A DNA stretch of 64,000 nucleotides from Somniosus microcephalus (lineage: Eukaryota). Where the stretch lies: positions 111,042,001 through 111,106,000 of the forward strand of contig CM126210.1 in assembly GCA_052327205.1 (NCBI GenBank), given 5' to 3'. Shown in pieces: positions 2,712-54,067 of this stretch (the first letter of the stretch is position 1; each line of letters opens with the position of its first letter). The notes under the pieces are model-generated. The model saw only the letters and a program-made list of their open reading frames with translations, did not search any database and had not been told where the DNA came from. The position numbers were made by a program, and so were the translations under genes.

Positions 2712-2832
2712 TGGCAAAATACTGCAGAGGCTGGAAATCCGAAATAACAACAGAAAATGCTGGAAAAACTCAGCAGGTCAGGCAACATCCGTGGAGAGAA
2801 ATTTGAGTTGACGTTTCGGGTCGAAACCCTTT
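2712..2832 (-). mobile_element. Penelope-like element 3' end (family A), 5'-truncated inside the hammerhead motif
   Basis: Near-identical to the 3' end of the GIY-YIG-bearing copy at 29207; flanked by 12-bp direct repeat TGTGCTGAATGA (2700-2711, 2833-2844). Confidence 0.85.
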
Positions 2833-3132
2833 TGTGCTGAATGACTTGTACTATATAACATCTGCATATGTAGTTATAATCGCCTATATATTAATACCTT
2901 CTAATCAAAGCAGCTTGAAGAGCTGGGAAACTAAAAAAACTTTTAGAAATCTTATAGAACTATCATTGGGCAATATATGGAATGCGGATTCAAATTGGCC
3001 TCCAATTTGGGTAATGCAGGGAATAATGAGGTGAGGAGAAAAGCTAAGATAGAGATAATGCAAATGATGTGCTAAGTTGCAGGTATGCCATAGAGTAGAA
3101 TTTTCTCAGTGCATTTGCTCCTTTATTGAATA

Positions 3133-12734: not shown

Positions 12735-14660
12735 ATTTACAACCATCTGCAGCCAGAAGTGCTGAGCGAAGGATCCTTCTCAGCCTCCTCCTGAGGTCAC
12801 CAACATCACAGTTGACAGTCTGCAGCCAATTCAATTCACTTCACGTAATATCAAGAAATGGCTGAGTGCACCAGACACAGAAAGGTTACAGTCCCCAATA
12901 ACATCCTGGCTGTAATGCTGAAGACCTGTGCTCCAGAACTAGCCTGACCAAGCTGTACTGCTGCAATACATGTATTTATCTGACAATGTGGAAAATTCTT
13001 CAGATCTGCCCTGTCCACAGAAAGCATGACAAATCCACTACTGCCAATTGCCATTCTATCAGCCTACTCCCAAACATCAGTGATGGAAGGTATCGTCAAC
13101 AGCGCTATCAAGCAAAACTTACCAATAATCTGCTCACCGATGCCCAGTTTGGGTTCCTATGCGAGCACTTGGCTCCAGACCTCTTTATAACCTTTGGCCA
13201 AACATTGACAGAGGAGCTGAATTCCAGAGGCGAGGCAAGAGTTACAACTCTTGTCATCAAGACAGTATTGACCAAGTATGGCACCAAGAAGCCCGAGTAA
13301 AACTGAAATCAGTGGAGATCAGGGGGAAAACTCCAGTGGCTGAAGTCATACCTGGCAGAAAGGAAGATGATTGTGGTTGTTGGAGGCCAATCATCCCGGC
13401 CCAAGGATATCACTGCAAGTGTTCCTCAGGGCAGTGTCCTAGGCCCAACTATCTTCAGCTGCTTCATCAATGACCTTCCCTCCAACATAAGGTCAGAAGT
13501 GGGGATGTTCGCTGATGCTTGCACAGTGTTTAGTTTCATTTGCAACTCCTCAGATAATGAAGCATGTATGCAGCAAGACCTTGACAACATCCAGGCTTGG
13601 GCTGATAAGTGGCAAGTAACATTCGTGCCCTACAAATGCCAGACAATAATCATCACGAGAAAGCCTAACCACCTCTCCTTGACATTCAGTGGCATTACCA
13701 TCAGCGAGTCCCCCCACCATCAACATCCTGAGGGTTGCCATTGACCAGAAACTCAATTAGACCAGCCACATAAATGCCGAGGCTACTAAAGCAGGTTAGC
13801 GGTTGTGATGAGTGGTTCATCCCCTGATTGCCCAAAGGCTCTTCACCATCTACAAGGCACAAGTCAGGAGTGTGATGGAATACTCTCCACTTGCTTGGAT
13901 GCGTGCATCTGCAACAACACTTTAAGCTTAACACCATTCAGGACAAAGCAGTCCGCTTGATCGGCCTCTCGTTCACTAGTCTAAACTTCTATACATGGTT
14001 ACAGTGTGTACTATCTACAAGATACAGGAAACTTTGTGTTATCCGGAGGCTTACTGTCTGGAATGCCCGAGCCACCGGCAAAAATCAGGAGCCGTTTTCG
14101 TTAGGTTTTTTTCTCCTCGTTGCTTTTTTTCTCGTTGCTTTTTTCCTCAACAGTCAAGCTCTGCAAGGTCTGCTGAAGCTGTTGCTAAGCTACAGAGACG
14201 CATGGACTGTTTAGAAGCTGTTGCTAAACAACAGGGTTTGTTGACAGATACGGAGCTCAAAAGCTTCCGTATCTTTCAACATTAGCGCTGGAGTGTCTGG
14301 CAGTTTTGAGGGAATGGCAACAGCTCGGTCCCATCGGTGCCGGATAGCACAAAGTTTCCTGTACACTGCGGCAAGTTGCCAAGGCTTCTTCGGCAGCACC
14401 TCCCAAACCCGCGACCTTCACCACCGAGAAGGACAACGGCAGCAGGTGCATGGGAACACCATCACCTCCAAGTGCCCACCATCCTGACTTGGACATAGAG
14501 CGCCGTTCCTTCATTGTCGCTGGGTCAATGCTGTTAGGCAGGAAGTTCCAAAACAATGTGGGAGCTCCTTCACCATATGGACTGCAGCGATTCACCACCA
14601 TCTCCTCAGAGCAACTTGAAATGTCAGCCTTGTCAGTAATGCCCACGTCCTGATAACGAA
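12735..14660 (+). mobile_element. Decayed non-LTR retrotransposon (CR1/L2 group) RT region and 3' end
   Basis: Peptides QFGF, VPQGSVLGPTIFSCFINDL, MFADAC (FADD motif) and QQDLDNIQAWADKWQVTF; interrupted by a MITE at 14025; continues across the hAT to ~10060. Confidence 0.8.
14025..14361. mobile_element. Tc1/mariner-pogo-type MITE, copy 1
   Basis: 22-bp TIR CAGGAAACTTTGTG(T/C)TATCCGG with one mismatch; TA TSD on both sides. Confidence 0.85.
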
Positions 14661-16789: not shown

Positions 16790-17143
16790 AAAACAAAATG
16801 CTGGAAATACTCAGCAGGTCAGGCAGCATCTGTGGAGAGAGAAACAGTTAACGTTTCAGGTCAGAACTGGAAAAAGTTGGAGATCTAACAGATTTTAAAG
16901 CAAGTGTGGGGCAATTGAAAGGGGGAGGGGAGGAAAGAACAAAAGGGAAGATCTGATAGGGCGGAAGGCAGGAGAGATTAAAAGACAAAAGGGATGATGG
17001 TGCAAGGCAAAAGGAGATGGTAATGGGACAAGTTAAGAAACAAGAGGAGTCTAGAGGAGGTGTAAATGGGAATAGCAGAATAATCAACAGCTGCCATGTG
17101 GAAAAAAATAGGAGCAGAGGTTATGGTCTGAAATTGTTGAACT
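16790..17143 (-). mobile_element. Penelope-like element 3' UTR (family A), hammerhead stem II deleted
   Basis: Last GIY-YIG codons (FNNFR) at the right end; minus strand CAGTT-CTGA-CCT-GAAA-CGTT-AACTG; 13-bp TSD AAGCAAGGGTATA (16777-16789, 17144-17156). Confidence 0.85.
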
Positions 17144-26338: not shown

Positions 26339-28099
26339 GTCAGCTGTGGCTCAGTGGGTAGCACACTCACATCTGAGTCAGAAGGTTGTGGGTTCAAATC
26401 CCACTCCAGGGACTTGAGCACATCTTCTCTTCTTAGGCAGTCCTTCTGAACCGAGGATGACTTGCTTCCACAGTCTCTGTCTCTGTCACAGGTGGGGCAG
26501 ACGGTGGTTGAAGGAGCGGGTGGGTGGGGTGCTTGGGTTGACGTGCGTTGCCTGTGCTTGGCTTCCGCTTGCTCCCGGCGAAGAGACTCGGTGTTCGGCG
26601 CCTTCTCGGGTGCTTTTCCTCCACTTTGTGCGGTCTTGGGCCAGAGATTCCCAGGTGTCGGTGGGGGTGTTACACTTTTTCAAGGAGGCTTTGAGGGTGT
26701 CCTTGAAGCGTTTCCTCTGCCCACCTGGGGCTCTCTTGCCGTGCCGGAGCTCCGAGTAGAGCGCTTGTTTTGGGAGTCTCGTATCGGGCATGTGGACAAT
26801 GTGACCCATCCATCGGAGCTGATTGAGCATGGTCAAAGCTTCGAAGATGGGGATGTTGGCCTGATGGATTTGCAGGATCTTGCGGAGGCAGCATTGGCGG
26901 TACCTCTCCAGTGCTTTGAGGTGCCTGCTGTACATGGTCCATGTCTCTGAGGCATACAGCAGGGTGGGTATCACTGCTGCCCTGTAGACCATGAGCTTAG
27001 TGCCAGGTTTGAGGTCCTGGTCTTCAAACACTCTCTTCCTCAGGCGACTGAAGGCTGCACTGGCACACTGAAGGCGGTGTTGGACTTTGTCGTCGACGTC
27101 TGCCCTTGTTGACAGTAGGCTCCCGAGGTATGGAAAGTGGTCCACGTTGTCCAAGGCCTTGTCGTGGATTTTGATAATCGGGGGGCAGCACTGTGTGGCA
27201 GGGGCAGGTTGGTAGAGGACCTTTGTCTTAAGGATGTTTAGTGTAAGGCCCATGCTCTCGTACGCTTCGGTGAAGGTGTTGACGATGGTTTGGAGTTCGA
27301 CCTCCGAGTGAGCGCAGACACAAGCATGGTCTGCATACTGTAATTCGACGACAGGATGGGACGACCTTGGATCTGGACTGGAGGTGACGGAGGTTGAACA
27401 GTTTCCCGTTGTTCTGTAAATTAGCTCCACTCCAGTGGGGAGCTTACTGAGGGTGAGATGGAGCATTGCAGCAAGGAAGATCGAGAAGAGCGTTGGTGCA
27501 ACGACACAGCCTTGCTTGACCCCGGTTCATACGTGAATTGGGTCTGTGGTGGAACCGTTGGTCAGGATCACGGCTTGCATGTCGTTGTGAAGCAGGCGGA
27601 GGATTGTGACAAACTTTTGAGGGCAGCCGAATTTGAGGAGGACACTCCATAATCGCTCATGGTTGACGGAGTCAACGGCCTTCGACACTGTCAACTTGAG
27701 CACATATATCTAGGCTGACACTTCAGTGCAGTGCTGAGGGAGCGCTGCATTGTCGGAGGTGCCGCCTTTCAGATGAGACACTAAACCGAGATCCTGCCTG
27801 CTCTCTCAGCTTGATGTAAAAGATCTTTTTTCGAAGCACTATTTCAAAGAAGAGCAGGGAAGTTGTCCCCGGTGTGCTGGCCAATATTTATCCCTCAATC
27901 AATATAACAAAAACAGATTATCAGGTCATCATCACATTGCTGTTTGTGGGAGCTTGCTGTGCGCAAAATTGACTGCCGCGTTTCCCACATTACAATAGTG
28001 ACTACACTCCAAAAGTACTTCATTGGCTGTAAAGCGCTTTGAGACGTCCGGTGGTCGTGAAAGGCTCTATATAAATGCAAATCTGTCTTTCTTTCTTTC
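26339..28099 (+). mobile_element. Full-length tRNA-headed Deu-domain SINE (SacSINE1-like), interrupted by RTE
   Basis: A box TGGCTCAGTGGG 26347-26358; B box GGTTCAAATCC 26391-26401; body resumes at 27706; L2-like tail CTATATAAATGCAA plus (CTTT)n. Confidence 0.8.
26424..27693 (-). mobile_element. 5'-truncated RTE-clade LINE
   Basis: GVKQGCV, LQYADH (YADD), GLTLNILKTKV, FPYLGS, QLRWMGHIVHMPDTRLP, GGQRKRFKDTLK; short GAA-type tail; 12-bp TSD ACTTGAGCACAT (26412-26423, 27694-27705). Confidence 0.92.
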
Positions 28100-29206: not shown

Positions 29207-30036
29207 CGATAGCAAAATACTGCAGATGTTGGAAATCCGAAATAACAACAGAAAATGCTGGAAAAACTCAGCAGGTCAGGCAACATCCGTGGCGAGAAAT
29301 TTGAGTTGACGTTTCGGGTCAAACCCTTCTTCAAAACTGGAAAGAAAAGAAAACAGATTGAAGGCAGGGCTGCGATCGGACAAAAGAAGTGAAAGAAACA
29401 AAAGAGCTAGACGAGATGGTAATAGGCTGAGATTAGGTGTAAAGTGTACTGGCAGGGCAAGAGATAGCCGCCAGGTGTGAGAGAGAAACAAAAGGAAGGG
29501 GGGGGGGGGGGGGGAAAGGAGTGGAAAAAATGTGTAATGGGGCCGAGGTTATCATCTGAAATTGTTGAACTCGATATTGAGTCCGAAAGGCTGCAGAGTG
29601 CCTAATCGGAAGATGAGGTGCTGTTCCTCGAGTTTACGTTGAGCTTCCGTGGAACAATACAGGAGGCCAAGGGCGGTGAGGTCCGAGTGGGAATGGAGCG
29701 GTGAATTAAAATGACAGGCGACCGGAAGCTCGGGGTCACTCTTACGGACTGAACAGAGGTGTTCCGCAAAGCGGTCACCCAATCTGCGTTTGGTCTCCCC
29801 AATGTAGAGGAGACCGCATCGTGAGCAGCGAATACAGTATACTAGATTGCGAGAAGTACAAGTAAATCGCTCTTTTGTTTCTTTCACTTCTTTTGTCTGA
29901 TCGCAGCCCTGCCTTCGATCTGTTTTCTTTTCTTTCCAGTTTTGAAGAAGGGTTTGACCCGAAACGTCAACTCAAATTTCTCTCCACGGATGTTGCCTGA
30001 CCTGCTGAGTTTTTCCAGCATTTTCTGTTGTTATTT
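29207..30036 (-). mobile_element. Penelope-like element (family A) with GIY-YIG fragment and inverted pseudo-LTR
   Basis: ORF 29552-29870 NLVYCIRCSRCGLLYIGETKRRLGDRFAEH...GLNIEFNNFR; 168-bp inverted arms 29240-29407 / 29869-30036 (3 mismatches); 14-bp TSD TGGCAAATACTGTA (29193-29206, 30037-30050); sits in an old CR1 3' end. Confidence 0.92.
29938..29972 (+). ncRNA. Minimal type I hammerhead motif with C3>U variant (mirror copy on - strand at 29304-29338)
   Basis: AGTT-TTGAAGA-A-GGGT-TTG-ACCC-GAAA-CGTC-AACT: stem I, core, stem II, palindromic ACGT stem III and GUC triplet. Confidence 0.6.
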
Positions 30037-30080
30037 TGGCAAATACTGTATGTGGAATTGACTGCCTGTGGAGGCATATC

Positions 30081-30415
30081 CAGGAAACTTTGTGCTATCC
30101 GGCACCGACGGGACCGAGCTGTTGCCGTTCCCTCAAAACTGCCGGACACACCAGCGTTAATGTTGAAGCATACGGAGCTTTTCAGCTCCATATCTGACAA
30201 CAAACACTGTTGCTTAGCAACAGCTTCTAAACAGTTGGCCCGTACCTTGGAAGTGTCTCTCTGAAGCTGTTGCTAAGCTACAGAGACTTTGCAGAGCCTG
30301 ACTGTTGGAAAAAAAAAAGCCACGAGAAGAAAAAAAACCTAACCAAACGGCTCCTGATTTTTGCCGGTGGCTCGAGCTTGCCGGACATTTAGCCTCCGGA
30401 TAACACAGTTTCCTG
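30081..30415. mobile_element. Tc1/mariner-pogo-type MITE, copy 2
   Basis: Same TIRs and interior as copy 1 in opposite orientation; flanked by TC on both sides. Confidence 0.85.
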
Positions 30416-31204
30416 TCGTGCGAAAAAATTTAAGGGAAAGTTGGATAGATATTTGAGGAAGTGGGAGCTGGATGATTGACAGCTATTAGTGTTTGGGATT
30501 GGCAAGATGGGTTACAGAATCATTTCTGATCCTGTAATTTCTGTTTTGTGTATAAGTTTCAGTTTCCAAAAATGTGGCATGCGTGCGCAGTGTTCTGTGT
30601 CTTGCCTGTTTCCATGCTATTTATTGCATTTTTGTGTTAAAATATAAACGCTATGACACTTCGTATATTGTCATTCAGTTTTCAGTGTTTCCTAGCTTTG
30701 CTGATTTTCAGTGTTACGTTACCAATTTGATTTAATGGTAATGCTGTTTATTAAGTGGATCTTGTTTTCACCAATATCTTTCCATCAGGCCATTATTGAA
30801 TTAGATTGAAACTACAGCATTATTTTTTCCTTCTCCTCTTCCCACCTCCATAAAAAGAATCCTGCTTTGCTCATCTAGAAAACAAAATCAGAATTTGTAG
30901 ATTATTGATGTGGGTACCCATCATTAAGAACAAGCTAAGTTTATTAAAAAAAAAAAAAGTCCCTACGCAAGTTAGCCTGGAAGCTCTGGCAGTTAACCAT
31001 TGAGGATGCTCAGTTTAAAAAAAATTAAACACAAAAATTGAACCGATTGAATCACACTCAATTCTTTCTCGGGGTGGGGTGGCGGGCGAAGTAGCTTTTT
31101 CTCAGCTGACATTTCAAATGTCTAAAATAAAGTTTGAAACAAACTAAAAACATCAAAAGTTACATATTTCACAATAACATGATTAAATTTACCCCATCGA
31201 ATTA

Positions 31205-36830: not shown

Positions 36831-38489
36831 GAGAGAATTCTTCATTCTGTTTGAAGTTCCACTGGAATTTTACTGCCCCAAACTCTCCTCCTGCCCTACA
36901 TTGCATCTGTGTTTTTATTTTTAATGAAATTTTAAACTCTCACCTCTGGTGTTGTGAGCTACCTCAGATCCCTGTGGAGTCATGTCAACTTTTTAGATGC
37001 AAGATACAATCTTAATCTGACGTGGATGTTTTTGGTTTGGAGTGAGGAGGTATTCGTTATACCTGTATAAGTTGTACATTTATGCATTTACCTGATATTC
37101 TGGTGAAATTATAAAATAACAATTCCAATCCTTTCCTCAAACATAACTATCTTAGGACTTGAGCACTTATAAGTGAAATTCCTGCTATTGACTATAAAGT
37201 TGACTAGCAAAATGCAGTTAGCTTTTTCACTTTGCATCCAATCAAGTTCTGGTACAGTATTGCTACAGAATATCCAGAGCAAACTGTACGTTGCTAGCTT
37301 TTGGGAATGATAGTGGCAAGTATTTTAGGGGATGCACATTATAGCAGAAACTGTAGTGTATTGAAGAATGTTATAGTGAGAGGCTGCTGTATTTTTAGGA
37401 GATGCTACTAAGTGTGTCATAATTCATCCATTTGTTTTTCTACAGTAGCTCATCAGAGGAGTGAAGGCAGCGATATAATGGTCAGTGTCTCTAGTCTAAA
37501 AGAAGCTGAAGTCTAGCAGTCTCTGAGATGCCCAGCAGTGGGAGATGAACTCTTCAGTATGAATGGTAATAGAGAAAACACTAAAGAAAAGACTCTAGGC
37601 CAGCGCGTGACATTTTTCTCCTCCTCTGGCAACCTCACATCAGCGTGCTTGGCTTTTCCAACTGCTCATTAAAATACTATCCTGAGGCTGAACCTTTACA
37701 GCGGTGTATTAATTTAAAATGCTCAATTCACCACTCTGGTGGCAAGTTCAGTTTTGCAGCATAGCTGGATTCTGGTTTGTGAGCCCTGATGCGATGAGTC
37801 TTGTCCTTGTTGGGTGGGATGCTTTGTGGGTAGCAGAGTGTCACATCCTGCATGGGGGTGTGGGAACCAACCAGATTTGTTTCAGCAGCAACTACAATAA
37901 TGCATGCCTTCTATTGGCTGATCACGATATGACATTAATTTGTGAAGCTGTCGAGCTTGCATGGCTAGCTCAAAGAGGTTGCTTAGAGTTTAGAAAAGAG
38001 GGGAGAGATCAATCTGGTGGTTGAAAAGATTTTGTGGAAAGTTTTAAAGTTGACTGTTTCAATACTCTACAGTATGTGGGGTATCAATGTAATTAAAATT
38101 ACTTAAAACTTGGAATCATTTAAAGTTTGGTTACTGTTGTTTTTATTGTCCATTTTGAGGTTGGCTACTAAATTATTTCAGATGGGCCTCAAGTGGGACT
38201 TGAATTTTTGAGTGAAAGCTTATAAAGTTGTGGTTTTGGCTTCTGTTTGTTCATGTGCCGACACTGACAACATAGCGCAGGTTTATTTTGGCACCAAATA
38301 TATGGAAAACACTTATGGCTATTTGCTGATATTGATGTTTTTCAGTTTTGATAAATGCATTTTTGTGAATTGCTTCCCTCAAACATTGTGTGGCCTAAGT
38401 ATTTTCATTAAGAAATCTTAGTTTTAACATTATTTTGTTTGGTTCATTTTTTTTTAATTCATCTTTATTTTAACTGTTTTCCTATGCTG

Positions 38490-38535
38490 AATTCATTTTA
38501 ATTAATGTTTTTGTTTTTTCCTTTTCTCCTTTCAG
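38490..38535 (+). other. Strong candidate 3' splice acceptor
   Basis: Long polypyrimidine tract TTTTTGTTTTTTCCTTTTCTCCTTTCAG ending at 38535 in repeat-free DNA. Confidence 0.45.
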
Positions 38536-40706
38536 GTTTTACAGAGTTTCAGTGATGTCCACTCATAAGAACATGATGGCCATATTTGTTTTAGAAGTAC
38601 AAGTATTGTAGATTATGCAATAAGTTCAATGCAACATGGGTATTAGGTGCTTGAGCATTCTGTAGTAGAAACTGAGGAATGTAAATAGCTACTAATCAGA
38701 AATTGTTGTATTTTACATTCTACCAGCAAATAATGTAGTGACCAAAAAGTGCAAAAAAAAGCCTTAATCTATTAGTTCTGTACTATAAACAAATTTACAT
38801 TTTCATCCAGCTGTTTTAGAATTTCCACACTGATAATTTGATTTTGTTTTTGACCAAATCTAAGAATTTTAAAACTGAGTGGTCGGACAATTATGGCAGC
38901 ATCATTCAATGCATAAAGCTAAGAGGCCAATTGACAGTGTTCAAAAGTGATCTAAATTAAAAATCTGTACAGCCTGGTATTGCAGTGTAAATTCTGATCC
39001 TCATTTCTCTGATTTTTGATCCTTTCCCTTTCATTTTTAACAGCCCACAGTTCCAGATAGAACAAGCAAACAAGACAGTTGATTAGAAGCTCTGATTCCT
39101 ATTTTGGAAGGTAGTTGGATGATGTGTTAACTTTAAAAACATGGGGTTAGATGGATTTCTTTCCTTTCCCAAAACCACTAAGGGTGAACACTTCCACACA
39201 TGACTCGGAGCGACCCTGATGTATGTTGGAATAGTGTAGTATGGACTTGCATTCTATCATAAAGAGGTTTTGATTGATTAAAGCGTGCAAAGATTGGTTT
39301 GGAAGAAATTGCCACTGGTAGCAACCTTTGTTTTCAGTTGTATAATGTTCACATGGACAATGTACGTGATTATGTGAAGTTGTGTAATATATATTAACTG
39401 ATTCAACAGTTGCAAAATTGTGATTGCTAAAAAATCTTTTGTTAGTGGTAGTCGTCTTGGATTTCACCAAATCATACATATTTTAGAAAACACAATTTTG
39501 CTTTGTTAGAAGTCATGTGTAAGATGATGTGGTGATGTGCTTGCACCTGCTTTGAAATGAAAGAAACCTTATGCAGCTAACAGACTTCTTTGAGTTCAAT
39601 CACTGCTGAAAGTCCTATACAAAATTTGCTAATTCCTAAGCACTATCAAAATTGTTGCAGCCACGAGGAAATTTGAAATACTAAAGGCACTCAACTTTGA
39701 CTTTATCCAATGGGAGCCACTTCTGAAAAGATGTTATCTAGTCGCTGATCAAATGTAAAACTTGGCTGCATATTTTCAAAGTTGTTGGCATTCACAAGAA
39801 AAAAAGTGAGGGGTAGTGAAAGTGAACAATAGGGTGTACTCTTGATGGTGTCTATTATATTTTTTGTCAGTGGCAATAGAGGCAGATATCCTTAATTGAA
39901 AGTTTTTAACCGGATGCCGTTCTTCTACATGACTTGCATGTTTTTGGTAACAGCATTTCTCCTGCAATTTTCCTTATATTGTACAGTTGTCTAATTTAAA
40001 AATGCCTAGGAGTGCGTACTTCCCATTGTACGTCAACTGTTGTAGCTGTAATGCTTGCACTGTAAAGTTGAGTACATAGTATATACTGGTAATGTGTGCT
40101 CTGCTATGGTTAGCTGGTAACTCCTATTTGATATTGTTCATCTGTTGCAAAGATTAGTTAGGAGATACAGATATATTTGTAATAAAACACATATTTCACA
40201 TCTGTGTATACATTTCTCTGAATTTTGATATAAAATGGTTTCACATGTGTTTTATGAAAATTAGCTAAATTTTCGAGCAATCCACATTTGTTACCTCTTC
40301 GAAAGTGGTTTTGGGTATATTAAGAAATAAATCAGCAAAAGCTCTTCAGAATTCCCTGAATTATGGGATATTTAAACTGTTGAGGTGCTGACCTGATGGC
40401 ATAAACATTAGAGTGGTAATTTCACAAAGCCAACGCTAATGGTTCATGTCCCCCAAGGCTGCTTTTCACTTAATCTGGACGCATTAGGCAACAGTCAAGG
40501 TGAGTGAATCATTACTTTAGCTAACTAGGACACCTCTACCTGTTTTGCCTAAATCCTCTGTCGTGTTTATGCAACTCTGGCTTCCCTCTGGGTCCATTCA
40601 TATACACACCGTGGCTGCAACTGTATACCCAAGCCCACTATTCCTAATTCCCTTTTTTTTAAAAACTTTTGTGGGTTTGCTCTCCTCTCTCTCCCTTTCA
40701 TCTGAC

Positions 40707-40840
40707 CAATGTTTCCTGTAATTTTTTTTGAGCTGCACGGCCCATTCAGAATACCGTGCATGCGCGGTTTTTCTATTGAAAAGCTGGCTGCGCAGGACCT
40801 CTAGAGCGTTGCATGGCCGCGCAGCTTGCATGGAACATTG
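40707..40840. mobile_element. Small hAT-like MITE
   Basis: CAATGTTTCCT...TGGAACATTG termini; interior similar to 10575-10738. Confidence 0.55.
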
Positions 40841-42152
40841 TCCCTGGTCATGCCACTTTTCATCTTCCCCAAACAAGCCTCCTTTGAGTCTTTTGCCCAT
40901 CAGCACTCCTCCACCTACCTTCTCTCTTCATGCTGGCCAGGCTCCAATCCCTTGTGGGAAAAGCCCACAGCTTCCCCCCTCTGCCTTACTCCGCATTCTC
41001 TGCCAAGCCCATTGTGGCACACATTGCTACCCCTTATGTAGAATTTACAGCACAGAAGCAGACCATTCAGCCCAACTAGTCTATGCCAGTGTTTATGCTC
41101 CACGAGTCTCTTCCCTCCACTCTTCATCTCAGCCTATCAGCATATCCTTCTATTCCTTTCTCCCTCACGTGCTTATCTAGCTTCTCCTTAAATGCATCTG
41201 TGCTATTTGCCTCAACTACTCCACATTCTAACCATGCTTTGGGTAAAGTAGTTTCTCCTGAATTTCTTCTTGGATTTTTGAATCACTATCTTATATTTAT
41301 GACCCCTGGTTTTGGTCTCCCCACAAGTGGAAACATTTTCTCTACATCTACCCTATCAAACTCCTTGATAATTTTAAAGATCTCTATTAGGTCACTCCTC
41401 AGCCTTCTCTTTTCTGGAGAAAAGAGCCCCAACCTGTTCAGTCTTTCCTGATGAGTATAACCTCTCCGTGCTGGTATAATCCTTGTAAATCTTTTTAGCA
41501 CTTTCTCTCATGCCACTATATCCTTTTTATAATATGGAGACCAAAACTGTTCACAGTGCTTGAAATGTGGTCTAACCAAGGTTTGATACAAGTTTAACAG
41601 AATTTCTTTGCTCTTCAATTCTACTCCTCTAAAAATGAACCCTAATGCTTTGTTTGCTGCTTTTATGGTCTTATTAACCTGCGTTACTACTTTGAGATTT
41701 ATGTATCTGTACCCCTAGACCCCATTGCTCCTTAACCCCTTTTAGATTCTTAGTTTCCAAGCAGTGTGTAGCCTCCTAATCTTCCTACCAAAATGTAACA
41801 GCAGACACTTATCTATATTGAAATTCATTTGCCAATTACATGCCCCTTCTGCAAGTTTATTAATGTCCTCGTCTTTTGTCACATTCTTCCTCAGTGTTAA
41901 CTATACTCCAAAGTTTGTGTCGTCGCAAATTTTGAAATTGTATTTCCGATTCCCGACTTCAAATCACTTATGTAAATTGTGAACAACAGTTATTCCAACA
42001 CTGATTCCTGAGGGATGTCACTTCATGCCTTTTGCCAATCTGAGCAGCTACCCTTAATCCCTATTCTGTTTTCTGTCTGTAGCCAGCTTGCTACCCTTTC
42101 TGCTACTTGTCCACTGACTCCACATGCTCTGACTGTTGTCATGAGTCTACTA

Positions 42153-42474
42153 CAGGAAACTTTCTGGTATCCGGCACGGACGGGACCGACGTGTTGCCGG
42201 TTCATCAACAATTCTGGATAACCGAACGCTATAGTAAAAGATACGGAGCTCAGAGCTCCGTATAAAGCAACAAACCCTGTTGCTTGCTTCAAAACAATCG
42301 GCACAAGTTGCAAGTGTCTCTAGCTTAGCAACAGCTTCGGCTGCACCCTTGCACAGCAACAAATGGAGTAAAAAAGTAACTAAAAGTAAAAAAAGTTACC
42401 TGAACCGACTCCTGAATTTTGCCGGTGGATAGAGCGTTCCGGTATTTAGGGGCCGGTTAATCGAACGTTTCCTG
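42153..42474. mobile_element. Tc1/mariner-pogo-type MITE, copy 4
   Basis: TA-CAGGAAAC...GTTTCCTG-TA; host CR1 rejoins across it. Confidence 0.8.
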
Positions 42475-42801
42475 TATGTGGTACCTTCTTGAAGGCCTTT
42501 TGAAAATCCAAATATATTACATCATCTGCATTATCCTTGTCTACACTTTGTTATTACTTTTTCAAAGAATTCAATAAGATTAGTCAAGTATGAGCTTCCC
42601 TTTTGAAATCCATACTATTTTATTATTTTTGTTTTCTAAATGTTTTTCTATTACATCTTTGAGTAAAGATTCCATTATTTTTCCTACCACCAATGTTAAG
42701 CTAGCTAGTCTATCATTCCTTGGACTTGTTCTATCTCCCTTTTTAAATTTATGTAAGAAGTCACACAACACCAGGTTATAGTCCAACAGCTTTATTTGAA
42801 A

Positions 42802-42838
42802 TCACAAGCTTTCGGAGCGCTGCTCCTTCTTCAGGTGA
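42802..42838 (-). ncRNA. Minimal type I hammerhead ribozyme motif (mirror copy)
   Basis: Exact reverse complement of 43374-43410. Confidence 0.8.
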
Positions 42839-43373
42839 AGTGGAGAAATGCATAAAGACACAGCTTATATAGTCAGAGAATCATGTCAGATGTTTACAGG
42901 TAACCTTTCCAACTGCCATTTATCACACCTCGGCAGAGAGATAATCACAGCAGTCAAAGGTGTGAATGGTGTCCAAACAGGTCAGTCAGGGAAACATTAC
43001 ATCAAAGAACAATGAGGTGGGGTCACAAGGGGTCAAATATTGCAGATGCTGGGGTCTGTATGAAAAACAAAAAAAGACAAAAAACAGATGCGGCCGGACC
43101 TGCTGTGATTTCCAGCCAAAAAAAAAGTTTTTTGTCTTTTTTTGTTTTTCATACAGACCCCAGCATCTGCAATATTTGACCCCTTGTGACCCCACCTCAT
43201 TGTTCTTTGATGTAATGTTTCCCTGACTGACCTGTTTGGACACCATTCACACCTTTGACTGCTGTGATTATCTCTCTGCCGAGGTGTGATAAATGGCAGT
43301 TGGAAAGGTTACCTGTAAACATCTGACATGATTCTCTGACTATATAAGCTGTGTCTTTATGCATTTCTCCACT

Positions 43374-43410
43374 TCACCTGAAGAAGGAGCAGCGCTCCGA
43401 AAGCTTGTGA
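43374..43410 (+). ncRNA. Minimal type I hammerhead ribozyme motif
   Basis: TCAC-CTGAAGA-A-GGAGC-AGC-GCTCC-GAAA-GCTT-GTGA: perfect stem I and II, intact CUGANGA/GAAA core, palindromic AAGCTT stem III; predicted cut after 43406. Confidence 0.8.
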
Positions 43411-43749
43411 TTTCAAATAAAGCTGTTGGACTATAACCTGGTGTTGTGTGACTTCTTACATTTGTCCACCCCAGTCCAACTCCGGCATCTCCACACCATT
43501 TTTAAATTTAGGTATAGCATTAGCTGTCTGCCAGTCCTCTGGCGCTATTCCCTTTTCTAATTAATTTTGATATATATGTAATAGTGACTCTGCTATCTCT
43601 TCCCTAGCTTCTTTTAATATGCACAGATGGGTTTTATCCTCTCTAAGTTTGATTAGTTTATCAATCTCCCTCCCCCCCCCTTTCTATCTTAAATGTCTTC
43701 ATATCTTTTTCAATCTTAACAGAACAGCAAACCTAATTGCCTGATTCTC

Positions 43750-45920
43750 TGCTCCCACTATCTCGTCCAGTGTTCTCATCGGAGGTTAATCTGTCCAACC
43801 TCCTTCATTCCTTTCACCTCTTCCAGTACTGTGTTCGCCCTTGCCATTTCCTCCCCCAGATCCCGCTGCTGGATCAGCAATTGTTCCCTTTCTCTGTATT
43901 TCCCTCTAGAATGTTTGCTCGCACATGAGCAGGACTATCGGCATCCAAGACCTCATTATGCATGATTGTATTGACATATTGGCAATGACAGAAACATGAC
44001 TCATGGTCGGCATTTCTTTCCTCCTTAAAGAAGTCCCCCTGCGTGGTTGTACTTTTTGCTACCTGCCTTGCCCAAATTGCTGCAAAAATGGCATGGCCCT
44101 TATCTCCAAGTTACACCTTTGGCCTCTTAACTTCCCTTCAGCACTTTGCCCTCTTCCAAGCCTCATGCCTTTCATTTAAAATTCTCATCTTTTACAGTAC
44201 CTCAAGCCCTATGCTAACTTCCGCCGAGCTGCCTTTTCGCTCTCTTCCCTTAACTTCTGCACCTAGCGAATCCTCATCCTCAGTGATTTCAACCTTCAAC
44301 TAAACGCCACAGTTAAATTCCCAACTCCTTGTCCTTGACCTGCCACTTATCATGGCAGCTGCACCACTGTCAACTCGCGTAACTGCTCCCTCACCTTTGT
44401 ATTTGACGTCTTGTTCTCAATATTATAGTCATTGTCTCCCACCCTGCTCATTCCCACAATACAGTCCCTTCTTCCCTCGTCAGTGGAGCAAACTTGAACT
44501 TACTTGGAATTCAACTGGCCAAGCCATTAATTGCTAGATCTGACTTGACTACATGAAGCATAATCATGCCTCACTATCCTCAACCAAAACCTCCTACTGT
44601 TACTGGATCATCCTGGAGTGCAAGGACAATCCCAGGCTTCTTTTCTTCATGACCAACTGGTTCCTTAAACCCCTTTCTTTCCACCCCCACTTCAAGTGCA
44701 ATTTTGAGGAGTTTGTGGATTTCTTCTTCACCAAGATTGAGACCATTTGTACATCTGTCTTTAATGCATTCTCCCATTCCTCTCACCCCTAATCTTCCAC
44801 CCACTCTAACCCCATCTCTCTGCACTTTCTTCCCCATCTGCACTTTCTTCCCCACCTCTCCTCCCTCTTTAACTTAAAGTCTTGTTATCCATGAGACCAA
44901 TCTCTTGCTCCCTTTATCCCTTTCCCACTCAACTCCCAGTTCCTGGCCCTCATTCTAGCTAACATTGTCCCTTTTTTTCCTTCAAAATCACCACCACCAC
45001 CATCTTCTTCGTCATCATCATTCTCAAAAACCCATCCAAATGCTGGGTTTTTATCCAAATGCTGCCATTGCAACTTTAGCAGTGGCTTGTCTTACCTCCT
45101 ATCTCCTGCTGCCTCCAGAGACCTCCAAGGATCCACCGTACGCCCTCTCCACTTCCTCATCTACACTCTGCCCCTTGGTGACATCAGCTGTAGGCATGGG
45201 GTCAGTTTGTACCTTTGCTGGTGATGCCCAGCACTACCTCTCTGAACCCATTGTTTGCCTCTCGCCAGACTACTTTTCAACATTCACTTTTGGATGAGTT
45301 ATTCCTTTCTATAGTTCAGCATTGGGAAAATCATCATCTTTGCCCCCTGCCACAAACTTCAACTTCCTTGCATCCCCGGCCATTATCTTGGGCTGAACCA
45401 GACCATTCTTAACTTGGTTGTCCTGCTCAACCCTGAACTAAGTTTTAAACCCCATATCCTTTCCATCAAGATCATTTGCACCCACCTTCGCAACATTACC
45501 CACCAAAGCGATTCACTTTCATAGGCACAGATGCGATGGGCCGAATGGCCTCCTTCTGTGCCATAAGCTTCTATGGTAAGCCCATCTGACGCTGAAGCCC
45601 TTGTGCATGTCTTTGTTACCTCCAGACTTTACTACTCTGGTCTCCTATCTGATACATTCCATAAACTTTCAACTTTTGCCAAAACTCTGCTGCATGTTTC
45701 CTGTCCCACACTACGTCCCACTCCAAATTGCCCTGTCTCTGTTGATCTTGATTGGCTCTTCATGGTGTTGCAACACTTTATCCTTGATATTTCCTCCATC
45801 TCTATCCCATCTAATCTCTCCTTTCCGAGCTCGGCATTGTGTTTCCTGGCATCTATTTGTGAAGCGCCTGGGACTTTTTTTTATGATGAATGCACTATGC
45901 AAATCGTTGCCTGTCAGTTT
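43750..45920 (+). mobile_element. Old L2 LINE relic
   Basis: APE-like DILAMTET*L near 43970; FFFTKIETI; AEALVHVFVTSRL; a short CR1 tail is inserted at ~45520-45575. Confidence 0.65.
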
Positions 45921-47727
45921 CACCTCATTGCTCCAATATATTTCTCTTATCAGTGACACTGGGTGACAATAAAACTAGAGAACTCTTATCTAGGTTTGCA
46001 CCCTAGCTAAAGGCGAGATGAGAACAAGTGGCCCCCTTTTGTTTGAAATGGGAGGAAATAAAAGTGTAAGTTTAAAAAAAACTAATGGATGAGAGATGTT
46101 TGGGATGAACTGTAGTTATCATTCTGAGGTGTTTTGGAGCCAAGATATGAAGAAGTGCCAAATAAATGAGGGCGGAGGTAAAATCAAAATTGTGGATTAT
46201 TCCATGCCCACTGGTCAATGTTATACGTAATCTGCATAAGTTTGATTTTCAAGGAAGAAGCTTCTCTGAGCATACAACAAATGCCAAAGATGGAACTTCG
46301 CATGGATGGATTTCTGTGGGAGATTACTGGAAGACCAATATCTTAACGTGTAAATAACAGGCATACTATTTTCAGGTTGGAAGACAGGAGCTTGTTTATA
46401 GAGGGTATAATAAATTTTGTTTTTAGACACCAATATTAGATGAGAAAACAGTATGAAATTGTTCAGTTTTTTGGGAGGTTAATAGAGTTTAAAATGGGTT
46501 ATTATGCTGAATGTATTACAAATAAAAAAAAATAAAGATTTTTTTTTCCAATTCTTGCTTTGCTTTATTTTATTGTATCTGAAAATCTCAGTTCTGTAAC
46601 AAAACCAAGAGCTTAACAGAAGCTAATAAGTTTTATTTTAAAAAGTAGAAATTAAGGATTAAGGAGATAAAATGGAAGATAAAAAAACAAAAGATCTGCT
46701 GGTGGCAGATTTTAATTTGTGCTTCCAAAACATCATACATAAATTGCAGTTGAGTGCTGATTGCATGTACAACTAAAGATTACTTCACTTGAAGTTTTAT
46801 ATTCTATTATGTTATGTCTAAAAACAGTGGGAAAAACTTGCTTGTTAACCAAAACCCTTATAAAAGAATTTTTTAGGAAATCCTATTCACTGCTCCTTAG
46901 TTCAGACCTGCTTCTTAGCTGCTCATTGTTTTGTGTGTGGACCCCTTGTATTTGGAGGTAAGTGCTGTTAAATGTTTCCTCCTCAATATAAGAGAAACCT
47001 AATAATCCCCTCTAATCTTTGTAACAGTAAACCAGTTTATTTTCATTGACTCAAAATGGACACATGTATGTCGTTTGAGTCGTAGGATCAGTTACAGAGG
47101 GCCCAAAATCTGAAAAAAGCTGTTTCAGAAATTCTCAGTGATTGGTAATCATGCCATGTGTCCTAAATTAAAGGTAGTTTGCATGCAAGTTTGGAGCATC
47201 AAAAGTGCAAGTTGTAGTGCTTTTCATTTTTTTGTCTCCGTTTCCTTTCTCCACTTCCTAACGTTGCTTGTGAAAATTCCTCGGGTTTAGCCATGAACAG
47301 CTGAAAGTTACAGACGAAGAAGGCTCCAGGTGTGCTCCTCTGTGTGTCCTGAGTTAGCTGAGCTCAACCTAGGGTGGTAGGGATCCTACAGTTGGTCTCA
47401 GCACCTCTGGTTAGGGAGGGAAGATGGGAGAGTACCAGCTCAATTAATCTCGTTTCTATAGTAGTCTCCCTGAGGCAGCAAGTACTGTAGAATGTTACAA
47501 AGCACTTTGTACCAATGTCTTTTTTGTGTATTGGCTTCTGTGGTGGTGAAAAGTGAGAGAATATTTGGAATCTCTTGAAAAGGGCTATATTTTCACTTCC
47601 AAACTGAACACTTCATATTTCAGTAAGAGCTTTTGAGATTACATGAAAACAGTTTTCATTGTCCAAAGGGCCCTTTTCCTCTTGAACACGGACTGCTGCA
47701 CACGCATAGAAAATAACATAACATCTG

Positions 47728-49095
47728 AAATAACAACAGAAAATGCTGGAAATACTCAGCAGGCCAGGCAGCATCCGTGGAGAGAGAAACAGGGTTAATG
47801 TTTCAGGTCTGGGACCCTTCATCAGAACTGGAAATGTAACAGATTTTAAGCAGGTGCAGAGGCCGGGGGGGGGGGGGGGGGGGGGGTTAGGAGGAGAGGA
47901 AGGAATTGAAAGAACCTGCTGTGAAAATGTTGCAAATGGGAATGGCAAAATCATACTGCATGAAAAATGGGGGCAGGGATTATTATCTGAAATTGTTGAA
48001 CTCTATGTTGAGTCCGGCAGGCTGTAAAGTGCCTAATCGAAAGATGAGGTGCTGTTCCTCGAGCTTACGTTGAGCTTCATTAGAACAATGTAATAGGCCA
48101 AGGACAGAGAGATCAGAGTGGGAGTGAAGTGGAGAATTAAAATGACAGGCGACCGGAAGCGCAGGGTCACCCTTACGGACTGAACGGAGGTGTTCCGCAA
48201 AGCCGTCGCCCAATCTGCGTTTGGTCTCCCCAATGTAGAGGAGACCACATTGTGAGCAGCGAATACAGTATATTAAATTGCAAGAAGTACAAGTAAATCG
48301 CTGTTTCACCTGGAGGGGGTGTTTGGGGCCCTGGACGGTGGGAAGGGAGGAGGTAAAAGGGCATGGTTGCATCTCCTGCGCTTGCACGGGAAGGTGCCAG
48401 GTGAAGGAGAAGGGCTGTTGGGGGTGATTGAGGAGTGGACCAGGGTGTTGAGGAGTGGACCAGGGTGTCACGGAGGGAGCGGTCCCTTCGGAATGCTGAA
48501 AGGGGAAGATGTGTTTGGTGGTGGGATCACGTTGGAGGTGGCGGAATTGGCGGAGGATGATCCGTTGAATGTGGAGGCTGGTGGGGTGAAAGGTGAGGAC
48601 AAGGGGAACTCTATCGTGGTTCTGGGAGGGGAAGGGGAAGGGGCGAGAGCAGAAGTGCGGGAAATAGAACGGACTTGGTCAAGGGCTGTGTCAACCACAG
48701 TAGAGGGGAATCCTCGGTTGAGGAAAAAGGAAGACGTCGGAAGCACTGGTATGGAAGGTGGCATCGTCAGAACAGACGAGACGGAGAAACTGGGAGAATG
48801 GAAGAGAGTCCTTACAGGAAGCGGGGTGGGAGGAAGTGTAGTCCAGGTAGCGCTGGGAGTCGGTGGGCTTGTAGTGGATGTTTGTCGAAAGCCGATCGCC
48901 AGAAATGGAGACGGAGAAGTCGAGGAAGGGAAGAGTCAGAGATGGACCATGTGAAGGTGAGGGAAGGGTGGAAATTGGAAGTAAAGTGAATGAACTTATC
49001 TAGTTCTGGGCGAGAGCAGGAAACGGCACCAATACAGTCATCGATGTACTGGAAAAAGAGGTGAGGGAGGGGACCTGAGTAGGACTGGAACAAAG
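47728..49095 (-). mobile_element. 5'-truncated Penelope-like element (family A) with RT C-terminal part and GIY-YIG
   Basis: FFQYIDDCIG (RT catalytic motif), FHPSLTFT, FFLNRGFP, LIYCIRCSQCGLLYIGETKRRL; frameshifted; 13-bp TSD AACATAACATCTG (47715-47727, 49096-49108). Confidence 0.92.
47794..47830 (-). ncRNA. Hammerhead motif, partly decayed
   Basis: CAGTT-CTGATGA-A-GGGTC-CCA-GACCT-GAAA-CATT-AAC; core intact, stem III palindrome (ACGT>ACAT) and stem I eroded. Confidence 0.6.
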
Positions 49096-53506: not shown

Positions 53507-53896
53507 TAGATTATATAAATATTCAATGTTGCAGGATTTTTTCAAACAATAGCTCTATTTACGGTTTTAATTATGAAATACAGCAGCTTTAACATAGTCA
53601 GGCTTAGACATAAACAAATGTTTGATCATTTGAATCCCTTCTGCTTCAGAGTGACTAATCCCAGAATGTCATTTCTGAGGTCAGGCTTAGTCCTCTTTTA
53701 AAGTAGAAAAGATGTTTAGTAATGTAAGTAGTTTTATTAATTTGATTGGATATGTTTGTATCTTTAAACTCTTGTCATTGCACCTGAAACTACTCAACAG
53801 CTTGCATGATTTTGTTCCCTGCTTTTTGTTTAAAGTTATTTAATTTTGTATGATTCTTATTTCTGGTGCTCTGGTAACTAAACGAGCTTGATTGCA

Positions 53897-54067
53897 AAAT
53901 AACAACAGAAAATGCTGGAAAAACTCAGGTCAGGCAACATCCGTGGAGAGAAATTTGAGTTGACGTTTCGGGTTGGACCCTTCTTCACGGATGTTGCCTG
54001 ACCTGAGTTTTTCCAGCATTTTCTGTTGTTATTTCGGATTTCCAACATCTGCAGTATTTTGCTATCG
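53897..54067. mobile_element. Miniature fold-back Penelope-like insertion (family A)
   Basis: 49-bp perfect arms 53897-53945 / 53986-54034 and a 33-nt tail; TSD (CG)AGCTTGATTGCAA (53883-53897, 54066-54080). Confidence 0.88.

Follow-up and report, generated by a model that had tools for sequence, protein, structure and literature searches.

The window, by which we mean the whole 64,000-nucleotide stretch of Somniosus microcephalus DNA analysed here (free of N), carries a palindromic unit that interrupts a decayed LINE-type reverse transcriptase (RT) on the minus strand (Table 1). The arms of the unit are exact reverse complements of 335 nt each, separated by a 41-nt spacer, and a 12-bp target site duplication (TSD) brackets the whole. 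This geometry, the TSD, the placement of the motifs (TATATAA at 43341, the CTGAAGA core at 43378, GAAA at 43399 and AATAAA at 43416) and the lack of coding capacity had all been described in an initial annotation, and sequence comparison agrees on each point, the longest stop-free stretch inside the unit being 91 codons. The unit is asymmetric, in that the right arm alone has an extra 37 nt ahead of the TSD, and this extension, which the annotation overlooked, is the diagnostic tail of a Penelope-like element (PLE). The join between the spacer and the left arm shows 2–3 nt of microhomology. The host sequence had been described as a CR1 element rejoining across the insertion; the minus-strand LINE-type RT frame does continue once the insertion is removed, and by its motifs the remnant is putatively CR1-like. 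The same remnant is interrupted at 42151–42483 by an unrelated repeat of ~330 bp, with ~69% copies at 14016–14363 and 30081–30416.

Table 1. The palindromic unit and its host site, in window coordinates.
Feature	Position	Strand	Remark
Host LINE RT remnant, downstream part	42470..42739	-	boundary approximate
Left TSD copy, 12 bp	42740..42751	.	last base common with arm
Inverted tail-less arm, parent PLE 3' UTR/pLTR	42751..43085	-	parent positions about 2771–3106 of 3143
Left-arm minimal type I hammerhead motif	42802..42838	-	mirror of 43374–43410; motif scan
Spacer, native parent 3' UTR	43086..43126	+	starts 59 nt past ORF stop
Sense arm, parent PLE 3' UTR/pLTR	43127..43461	+	
TATA-like motif TATATAA	43341..43347	+	putative promoter role
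Self-complementary 12-mer	43372..43383	+	overlaps hammerhead stem I and core
Right-arm minimal type I hammerhead motif	43374..43410	+	sequence and motif scan
AATAAA	43416..43421	+	putative polyadenylation role
PLE tail, 37 nt	43462..43498	+	one arm only
Right TSD copy, 12 bp	43499..43510	.	
Host LINE RT remnant, upstream part	43511..43600	-	in frame with other side; boundary approximate

Positions 43086–43498 are the last 413 nt of a longer parent element, from 59 nt past its stop codon, and differ from one of its copies (L033) by 1 mismatch in 413 nt. The 40-mer spanning the hammerhead is found 6621 times without mismatch across the 6.45-Gb genome of this species, and a reversed control 0 times; genome counts here are exact pattern matches. 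Three same-strand hammerhead pairs 3142–3148 bp apart occur among the first 100 of the 6621 matches listed, and a partial tandem of pseudo-LTR (pLTR), ORF and pLTR is present at L031, L032 and L033, with a spacing of 3148 bp and an open 891-aa ORF at L031. The PLE pseudo-LTR origin put forward in the annotation is borne out by this structure and by the match to the parent's end. In the tandem parents the tail terminates on the A of the ATG that opens the ORF, a tail-to-ATG junction with 530 exact genomic matches, and the TATA-like motif lies upstream of the ORF; at 43341 it faces the host LINE remnant.

The parent ORF matches RVT_1 (E 1.4e-9; 38.4 bits vs a cut-off of 29.6) and carries DKG at aa 296, YIDD at aa 532 and a CX4CxxC linker at aa 753–761, followed by a GIY-YIG-like segment in which two cysteines lie between the counterparts of GIY and YIG. 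Pfam GIY-YIG gave no direct match to the parent protein, NCBIfam gave RT matches only, all below cut-off, a PDB sequence search gave three weak RT matches (E 0.5–0.7), and a single-sequence structure model of the endonuclease had a pLDDT of 39.6. When 162 candidates were searched with residues 700–891, 17 proteins were returned; the nearest relatives with a name come from sharks, identity to a Heptranchias protein being 93%. PF01541 is passed by two of the proteins (P0017 and P0012) and not by a third (P0004); the C-terminal domain of the parent is 34% identical to P0017 across the GIY-YIG match of the latter, and the endonuclease residues Y, C, C, Y, G, R, H and N are invariant in 8 of 8 aligned proteins. 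We therefore count the parent as encoding a putative C-terminal GIY-YIG endonuclease (EN) with CCHH-type residues. Judged by sequence, the parent is an autonomous 3.15-kb EN+ PLE with a predicted 891-aa ORF for an RT and a GIY-YIG-type domain. The ORF is found in 20 of 24 listed sequencing runs, with no RNA run among the listed holders. A CX2-5CxxC linker between RT and EN is absent from Penelope and Poseidon according to the motif rule in PMC8557442, and the CX4CxxC linker thus places the parent outside both. Its clade is likely Neptune, whose members share the C-terminal endonuclease, DKG, YIDD, the CX4CxxC linker and the two inner cysteines; the parent differs in being placed by motif rather than by tree and in having no direct Pfam GIY-YIG match.

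Parts of the parent protein also occur inside annotated shark host proteins, among them septin and XRCC5 (P0003, P0008, P0009, P0010, P0015 and P0016), and these are likely gene-model errors or exonisation. Within the parent 3' UTR, window positions 43086–43170 include pyrimidine-rich AG sites that may be candidate splice acceptors, and a motif with 87% identity over 32 nt to the end of a second PLE family (16800–16831). That second family contributes an inverted insertion at 29207–30039 (171-nt arms, a TSD-like repeat of ~13 bp, an endonuclease remnant at 29576–29866 with 40% identity to the parent and a hammerhead-like motif near 29944) and a small palindrome at 53893–54067 (53-nt arms centred near a hammerhead-like motif, a tail on the right and a TSD-like repeat of ~15 bp). 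The window further holds, on the minus strand, a decayed PLE ORF at 47998–49066, running from RT thumb to endonuclease with 26% identity to the parent protein, and a LINE-type RT fragment at 26486–27526 with 346 stop-free residues.

The initial annotation regarded the unit as a non-autonomous, retrozyme-like element and suggested counting copies with the same centre and independent TSDs. The junction of left arm and spacer has one exact match in the 6.45-Gb genome, the window itself, which is the outcome that the annotation had associated with a one-off truncation of an ordinary PLE. A shorter and looser junction pattern matches three places, namely the window, one simple truncated copy and one diverged copy (89% identity) whose inverted piece measures only 23 nt. 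Spacer sequence set in its native context is matched 6795 times in the genome. With a unique centre and a spacer of native parent 3' UTR, the retrozyme-like description does not hold, and the unit is almost certainly an isolated insertion derived from the 3' end of an autonomous PLE, truncated and inverted on its 5' side. The window arms match the sample majority at every position, the single difference lying in the spacer. Since both arms equal the family majority, a perfect palindrome is what would be expected of a young copy; the young age proposed in the annotation stands, and the insertion is likely recent and inert.

Sister insertions were surveyed in a sample made up of the first 100 of the 6621 hammerhead matches listed, all on contig C1 and all with the exact 40-mer, which gave 73 non-redundant loci after 14 overlapping locus ids were dropped. 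Inverted pairs were found at 48 of these 73 loci; some of the remaining 25 may have arms beyond the fetched range or a more complex structure. The only two loci with the same long-arm breakpoints (L013 and L015) were counted once, because their TSD and flanks are identical and they represent one duplicated insertion, and the 48 non-redundant pairs analysed comprise 47 and the window. Exactly one tail is present in 47 of the 48 pairs, the tail-less arm usually ending 30–40 nt short, and 44 of the 47 one-tailed pairs are bracketed by a TSD (median 12 bp, 69% A+T). Of these 47, 22 have the longer 5' reach on the tailed arm and 16 on the tail-less arm, with no difference in 9. Spacers range from 0 to 2427 nt, and 18 of 48 are no longer than 50 nt, compared with a mean of 5.2 and a maximum of 12 in 2000 shuffles. 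The junctions show an overlap of at least 1 nt in 32 of the 48 pairs, a blunt join in 2 and inserted bases in 14, with microhomology lengths that are approximate because the arm ends are BLAST-defined. At one locus (L048:3654–4006) the arm junction holds 353 nt of other sequence, part of which is a mini-palindrome from another PLE family.

The two arms of an insertion resemble each other more closely than they resemble other insertions. Perfect identity is seen in 11 of the 44 pairs whose arms overlap by 60 nt or more, the window being one of the 11, and the pooled mismatch within pairs is 100 in 15433 sites (0.65%) against 1.36% between insertions, the within-pair value being the lower in 34 of the 44 pairs and not in the other 10. 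Minority variants are common to both arms of an insertion in 64 of 157 cases (41%), against a mean of 2.7% and a maximum of 9.2% in 500 partner shuffles. Variants confined to a single insertion and present in both of its arms number 25 against 0.15 expected; they come from 8 loci, with 10 of the 25 from a single one (L039). Because private variants are shared and the spacers are short relative to shuffles, we conclude that one template served for both arms and that their breakpoints are coupled. A literature search over a limited collection, with paper supplements outside its reach, found no counts of arm sharing within insertions. The survey also includes a fixed-centre mini-palindrome of ~215 bp, centred on the self-complementary 12-mer of the hammerhead, with 196 exact matches in the genome; a TSD is present in 22 of the 25 copies fetched (L088–L112). 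The variants of this fixed-centre form also segregate in other arms of the family, and for this reason we read the 12-mer as a joining hotspot rather than as the mark of a mobile family.

These data suggest that the unit in the window is very probably a single insertion of a 5'-truncated PLE 3' end, with the inverted arm likely built during integration itself. For the second arm, a route with two primers on one RNA has in our judgement about an even chance of being correct. The element protein would cut both target strands ~12 bp apart, and each nick would prime reverse transcription of a single shared element RNA, one start lying at the tail end and the other ~37 nt further in. Both cDNAs would end early, one after 413 nt and the other after 335 nt; joining of the free ends via the 2–3 nt of microhomology would leave head-to-head arms, one tail and a TSD. 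This scheme of two nicks, priming on one RNA and end joining is preferred because it fits the survey data with the fewest extra steps. Its fuller form, in which two RTs, one per nick, copy the same RNA from starts 37 nt apart before the cDNAs are joined, with the 12-mer as hotspot, is held tentatively, at somewhat less than even. In vitro work on one PLE protein shows both strands of AT-rich DNA being cut and extended, with reverse transcription beginning at two positions that delimit the tail (PMC11167929); the element used there belongs to the Poseidon clade, another family than that of the window.

The second arm might instead arise by fold-back, one cDNA (or an antisense template) priming itself and copying itself, with the endonuclease or repair leaving the tail on either arm; we regard this as possible and on balance doubtful. 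The private variants shared between arms and the coupled breakpoints are equally what a self-copied strand would show, the 9 zero-spacer palindromic junctions among the 48, several of them at self-complementary sites, fit a snap-back just as well, and 196 copies are centred on one self-complementary 12-mer. Self-priming has moreover been proposed from junction palindromes (PMC3846280), and EN-mediated formation of the tail has been proposed in PMC8557442. Under simple fold-back, however, the shorter arm should never be the one with the tail, yet this is the case in 16 of 38 unequal pairs, and those 16 still share variants between their arms (21 shared, 19 unshared). It likewise predicts that the tailed arm continues the native centre, whereas of the 25 fixed-centre copies 10 carry the tail on the native-centre arm, 14 carry it on the opposite one and 1 has it on neither. 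Fold-back would require an additional random trimming step to meet these counts, and the tail matches the two in vitro RT start sites reported in PMC11167929. Later gene conversion could also be a source of the variants shared between arms.

With the unit read as a one-off PLE stump, the hammerhead, TATA-like and AATAAA motifs on each strand are presumably passengers of the duplicated pLTR and not a selected switch. The right-arm hammerhead has a 4-bp stem I, the core CUGAAGA, an extra A, a 5-bp stem II, GAAA and a palindromic AGCU, with U at H17 and predicted cleavage after 43406, and a motif scan of the window gave exactly two matches, one per arm. The motif architecture agrees with the minimal type I hammerhead, palindromic stem III and cut site of the initial annotation. 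The annotation called the hammerhead intact; the motif is present on each strand, as a motif match, and Rfam searched over 38000–48000 returned no hammerhead family at E<=5, only hairpin-driven chance matches below gathering scores. Departures in the sample amount to 0.70% at hammerhead positions against 0.66% in the upstream pLTR, in a family too young to show conservation, and the folding z-scores of three hammerhead-containing stretches (-0.48, 0.07 and -1.83) indicate no unusual stability. Minimal PLE hammerheads have been reported without monomer cleavage and with low dimer cleavage (PMC4209133), and in PMC11167929 a PLE hammerhead cut only with the element protein and was dispensable for insertion.

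That the palindrome belongs to a mobile, non-autonomous, retrozyme-like family, with a hairpin masking the ribozyme as a switch or silencing trigger, is in our view highly improbable. The unit does lack coding capacity and has a hammerhead motif on each strand, the predicted fold of a read-through RNA is a hairpin of -660 kcal/mol in which 37 of 37 hammerhead nucleotides are paired, and the related fixed-centre mini-palindrome does recur. The masking half of the proposed switch is thus compatible with the predictions; its other half, exposure of the ribozyme in single-arm RNA, is not. In four single-arm transcripts the predicted probability of stem I is 0.00–0.11, and a competing hairpin formed by the self-complementary 12-mer covers stem I and core with a probability of 0.81–0.98. 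Because stem I is improbable and the competing hairpin favoured in these predictions, an RNA started at the TATA-like motif would not simply expose an active ribozyme, and a built-in switch or silencing trigger finds no support in the modelled folds. The centre of the window unit is unique, its head-to-head arrangement differs from the head-to-tail tandem of defined non-LTR retrozymes (10.64898/2026.07.22.740005), and among the fixed-centre copies the tail may sit on one side or the other and the variants recur in other family arms, as expected of repeated de novo formation. Since most insertions yield inverted copies of this kind, no locus-specific function need be invoked.

Our reading of the locus as a true insertion rests on the assembly for the palindrome at 42740–43510, since no read or contig was seen to span it: when the left flank, left arm and spacer were queried, no listed contig of the public runs bridged the flank-arm junction, repeat depth having swamped the locus. 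An assembly or library artefact such as a fold-back read, which the perfect arm identity and the lack of independent sequence across the locus might suggest, is scarcely credible, given that the unit has a 12-bp TSD and a tail on one arm only, that the host flanks are unmirrored and rejoin in frame, that the same layout with its own TSDs recurs at 48 of 73 sampled loci, most with arm mismatches, and that both window arms equal the family majority, so that a young copy would be expected to be perfect.

The locus itself is minor, one among thousands of stumps. The family to which it belongs is young, with arms ~1.4% apart between insertions; it has open ORFs, shows 530 pLTR-to-ORF junctions and takes the form of an inverted repeat in about two thirds of the insertions sampled. 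Numerous long, perfect palindromes of this kind may be a source of dsRNA and a problem for assembly. The origin of the tandem and inverted structure is termed undefined in PMC8557442, and the statistics gathered within insertions reduce the range of models and are scalable genome-wide: the arms share a template and have coupled breakpoints, a single tail is present, and either arm may be the longer. If the reading of two RTs on one RNA is true, thousands of inverted copies could settle the origin of PLE arms and tails from genome sequence alone.

In LINE-1 twin priming, two primers act on one RNA and the junction shows microhomology, and the inversions split the RNA into non-overlapping parts. 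The proposed route shares the two primers on one RNA and the junction microhomology and differs in that both arms of the window unit copy the same 3' end. Non-LTR retrozymes, as described in 10.64898/2026.07.22.740005, are head-to-tail tandem repeats with a hammerhead per unit. The window unit is likewise non-coding, derived from a pLTR and equipped with a type I hammerhead; whereas those elements form tandem families, it is a single insertion with two head-to-head copies and a centre junction with 1 match. With the minimal hammerheads of PMC4209133 the window motif shares a short helix I, an unpaired base between 9 and 10.1, the G10.1-C11.1 pair and palindromic 15.2-16.2, and differs in a helix II of 5 bp rather than 7–8 bp and in the predicted cleavage triplet, CUU. 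Dual hammerhead motifs 100–700 bp apart on opposite strands were already reported in that paper.

The closest likeness is to the EN+ PLE insertions described in PMC8557442, PMC3846280 and PMC8969392, which share 5' truncation, an inverted truncated copy at the 5' end, a tail of 30–40 nt at one end, a TSD and a TATA-like pLTR motif; the window unit differs in having no ORF between its arms and a TSD of ~12 bp. An inverted 5'-truncated copy with a 30–40-bp tail is usual in PLEs in the first of these papers, and the third, a curation guide, lists inverted pLTRs and short extensions. In Pen2a_Av (PMC3846280) the direct pLTRs exceed the inverted one by 37 bp, an offset equal to that in the window unit, and a TATA box is present; small RNAs from Penelope copies are also reported there. 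The pLTR and tail of Pen2a_Av and PAc continue into the ORF, whereas the tail of the window family stops at the start codon. The inverted pLTR with its tail and the paired hammerheads on opposite strands are thus already published, and the unit in the window represents a known architecture in a new family member.
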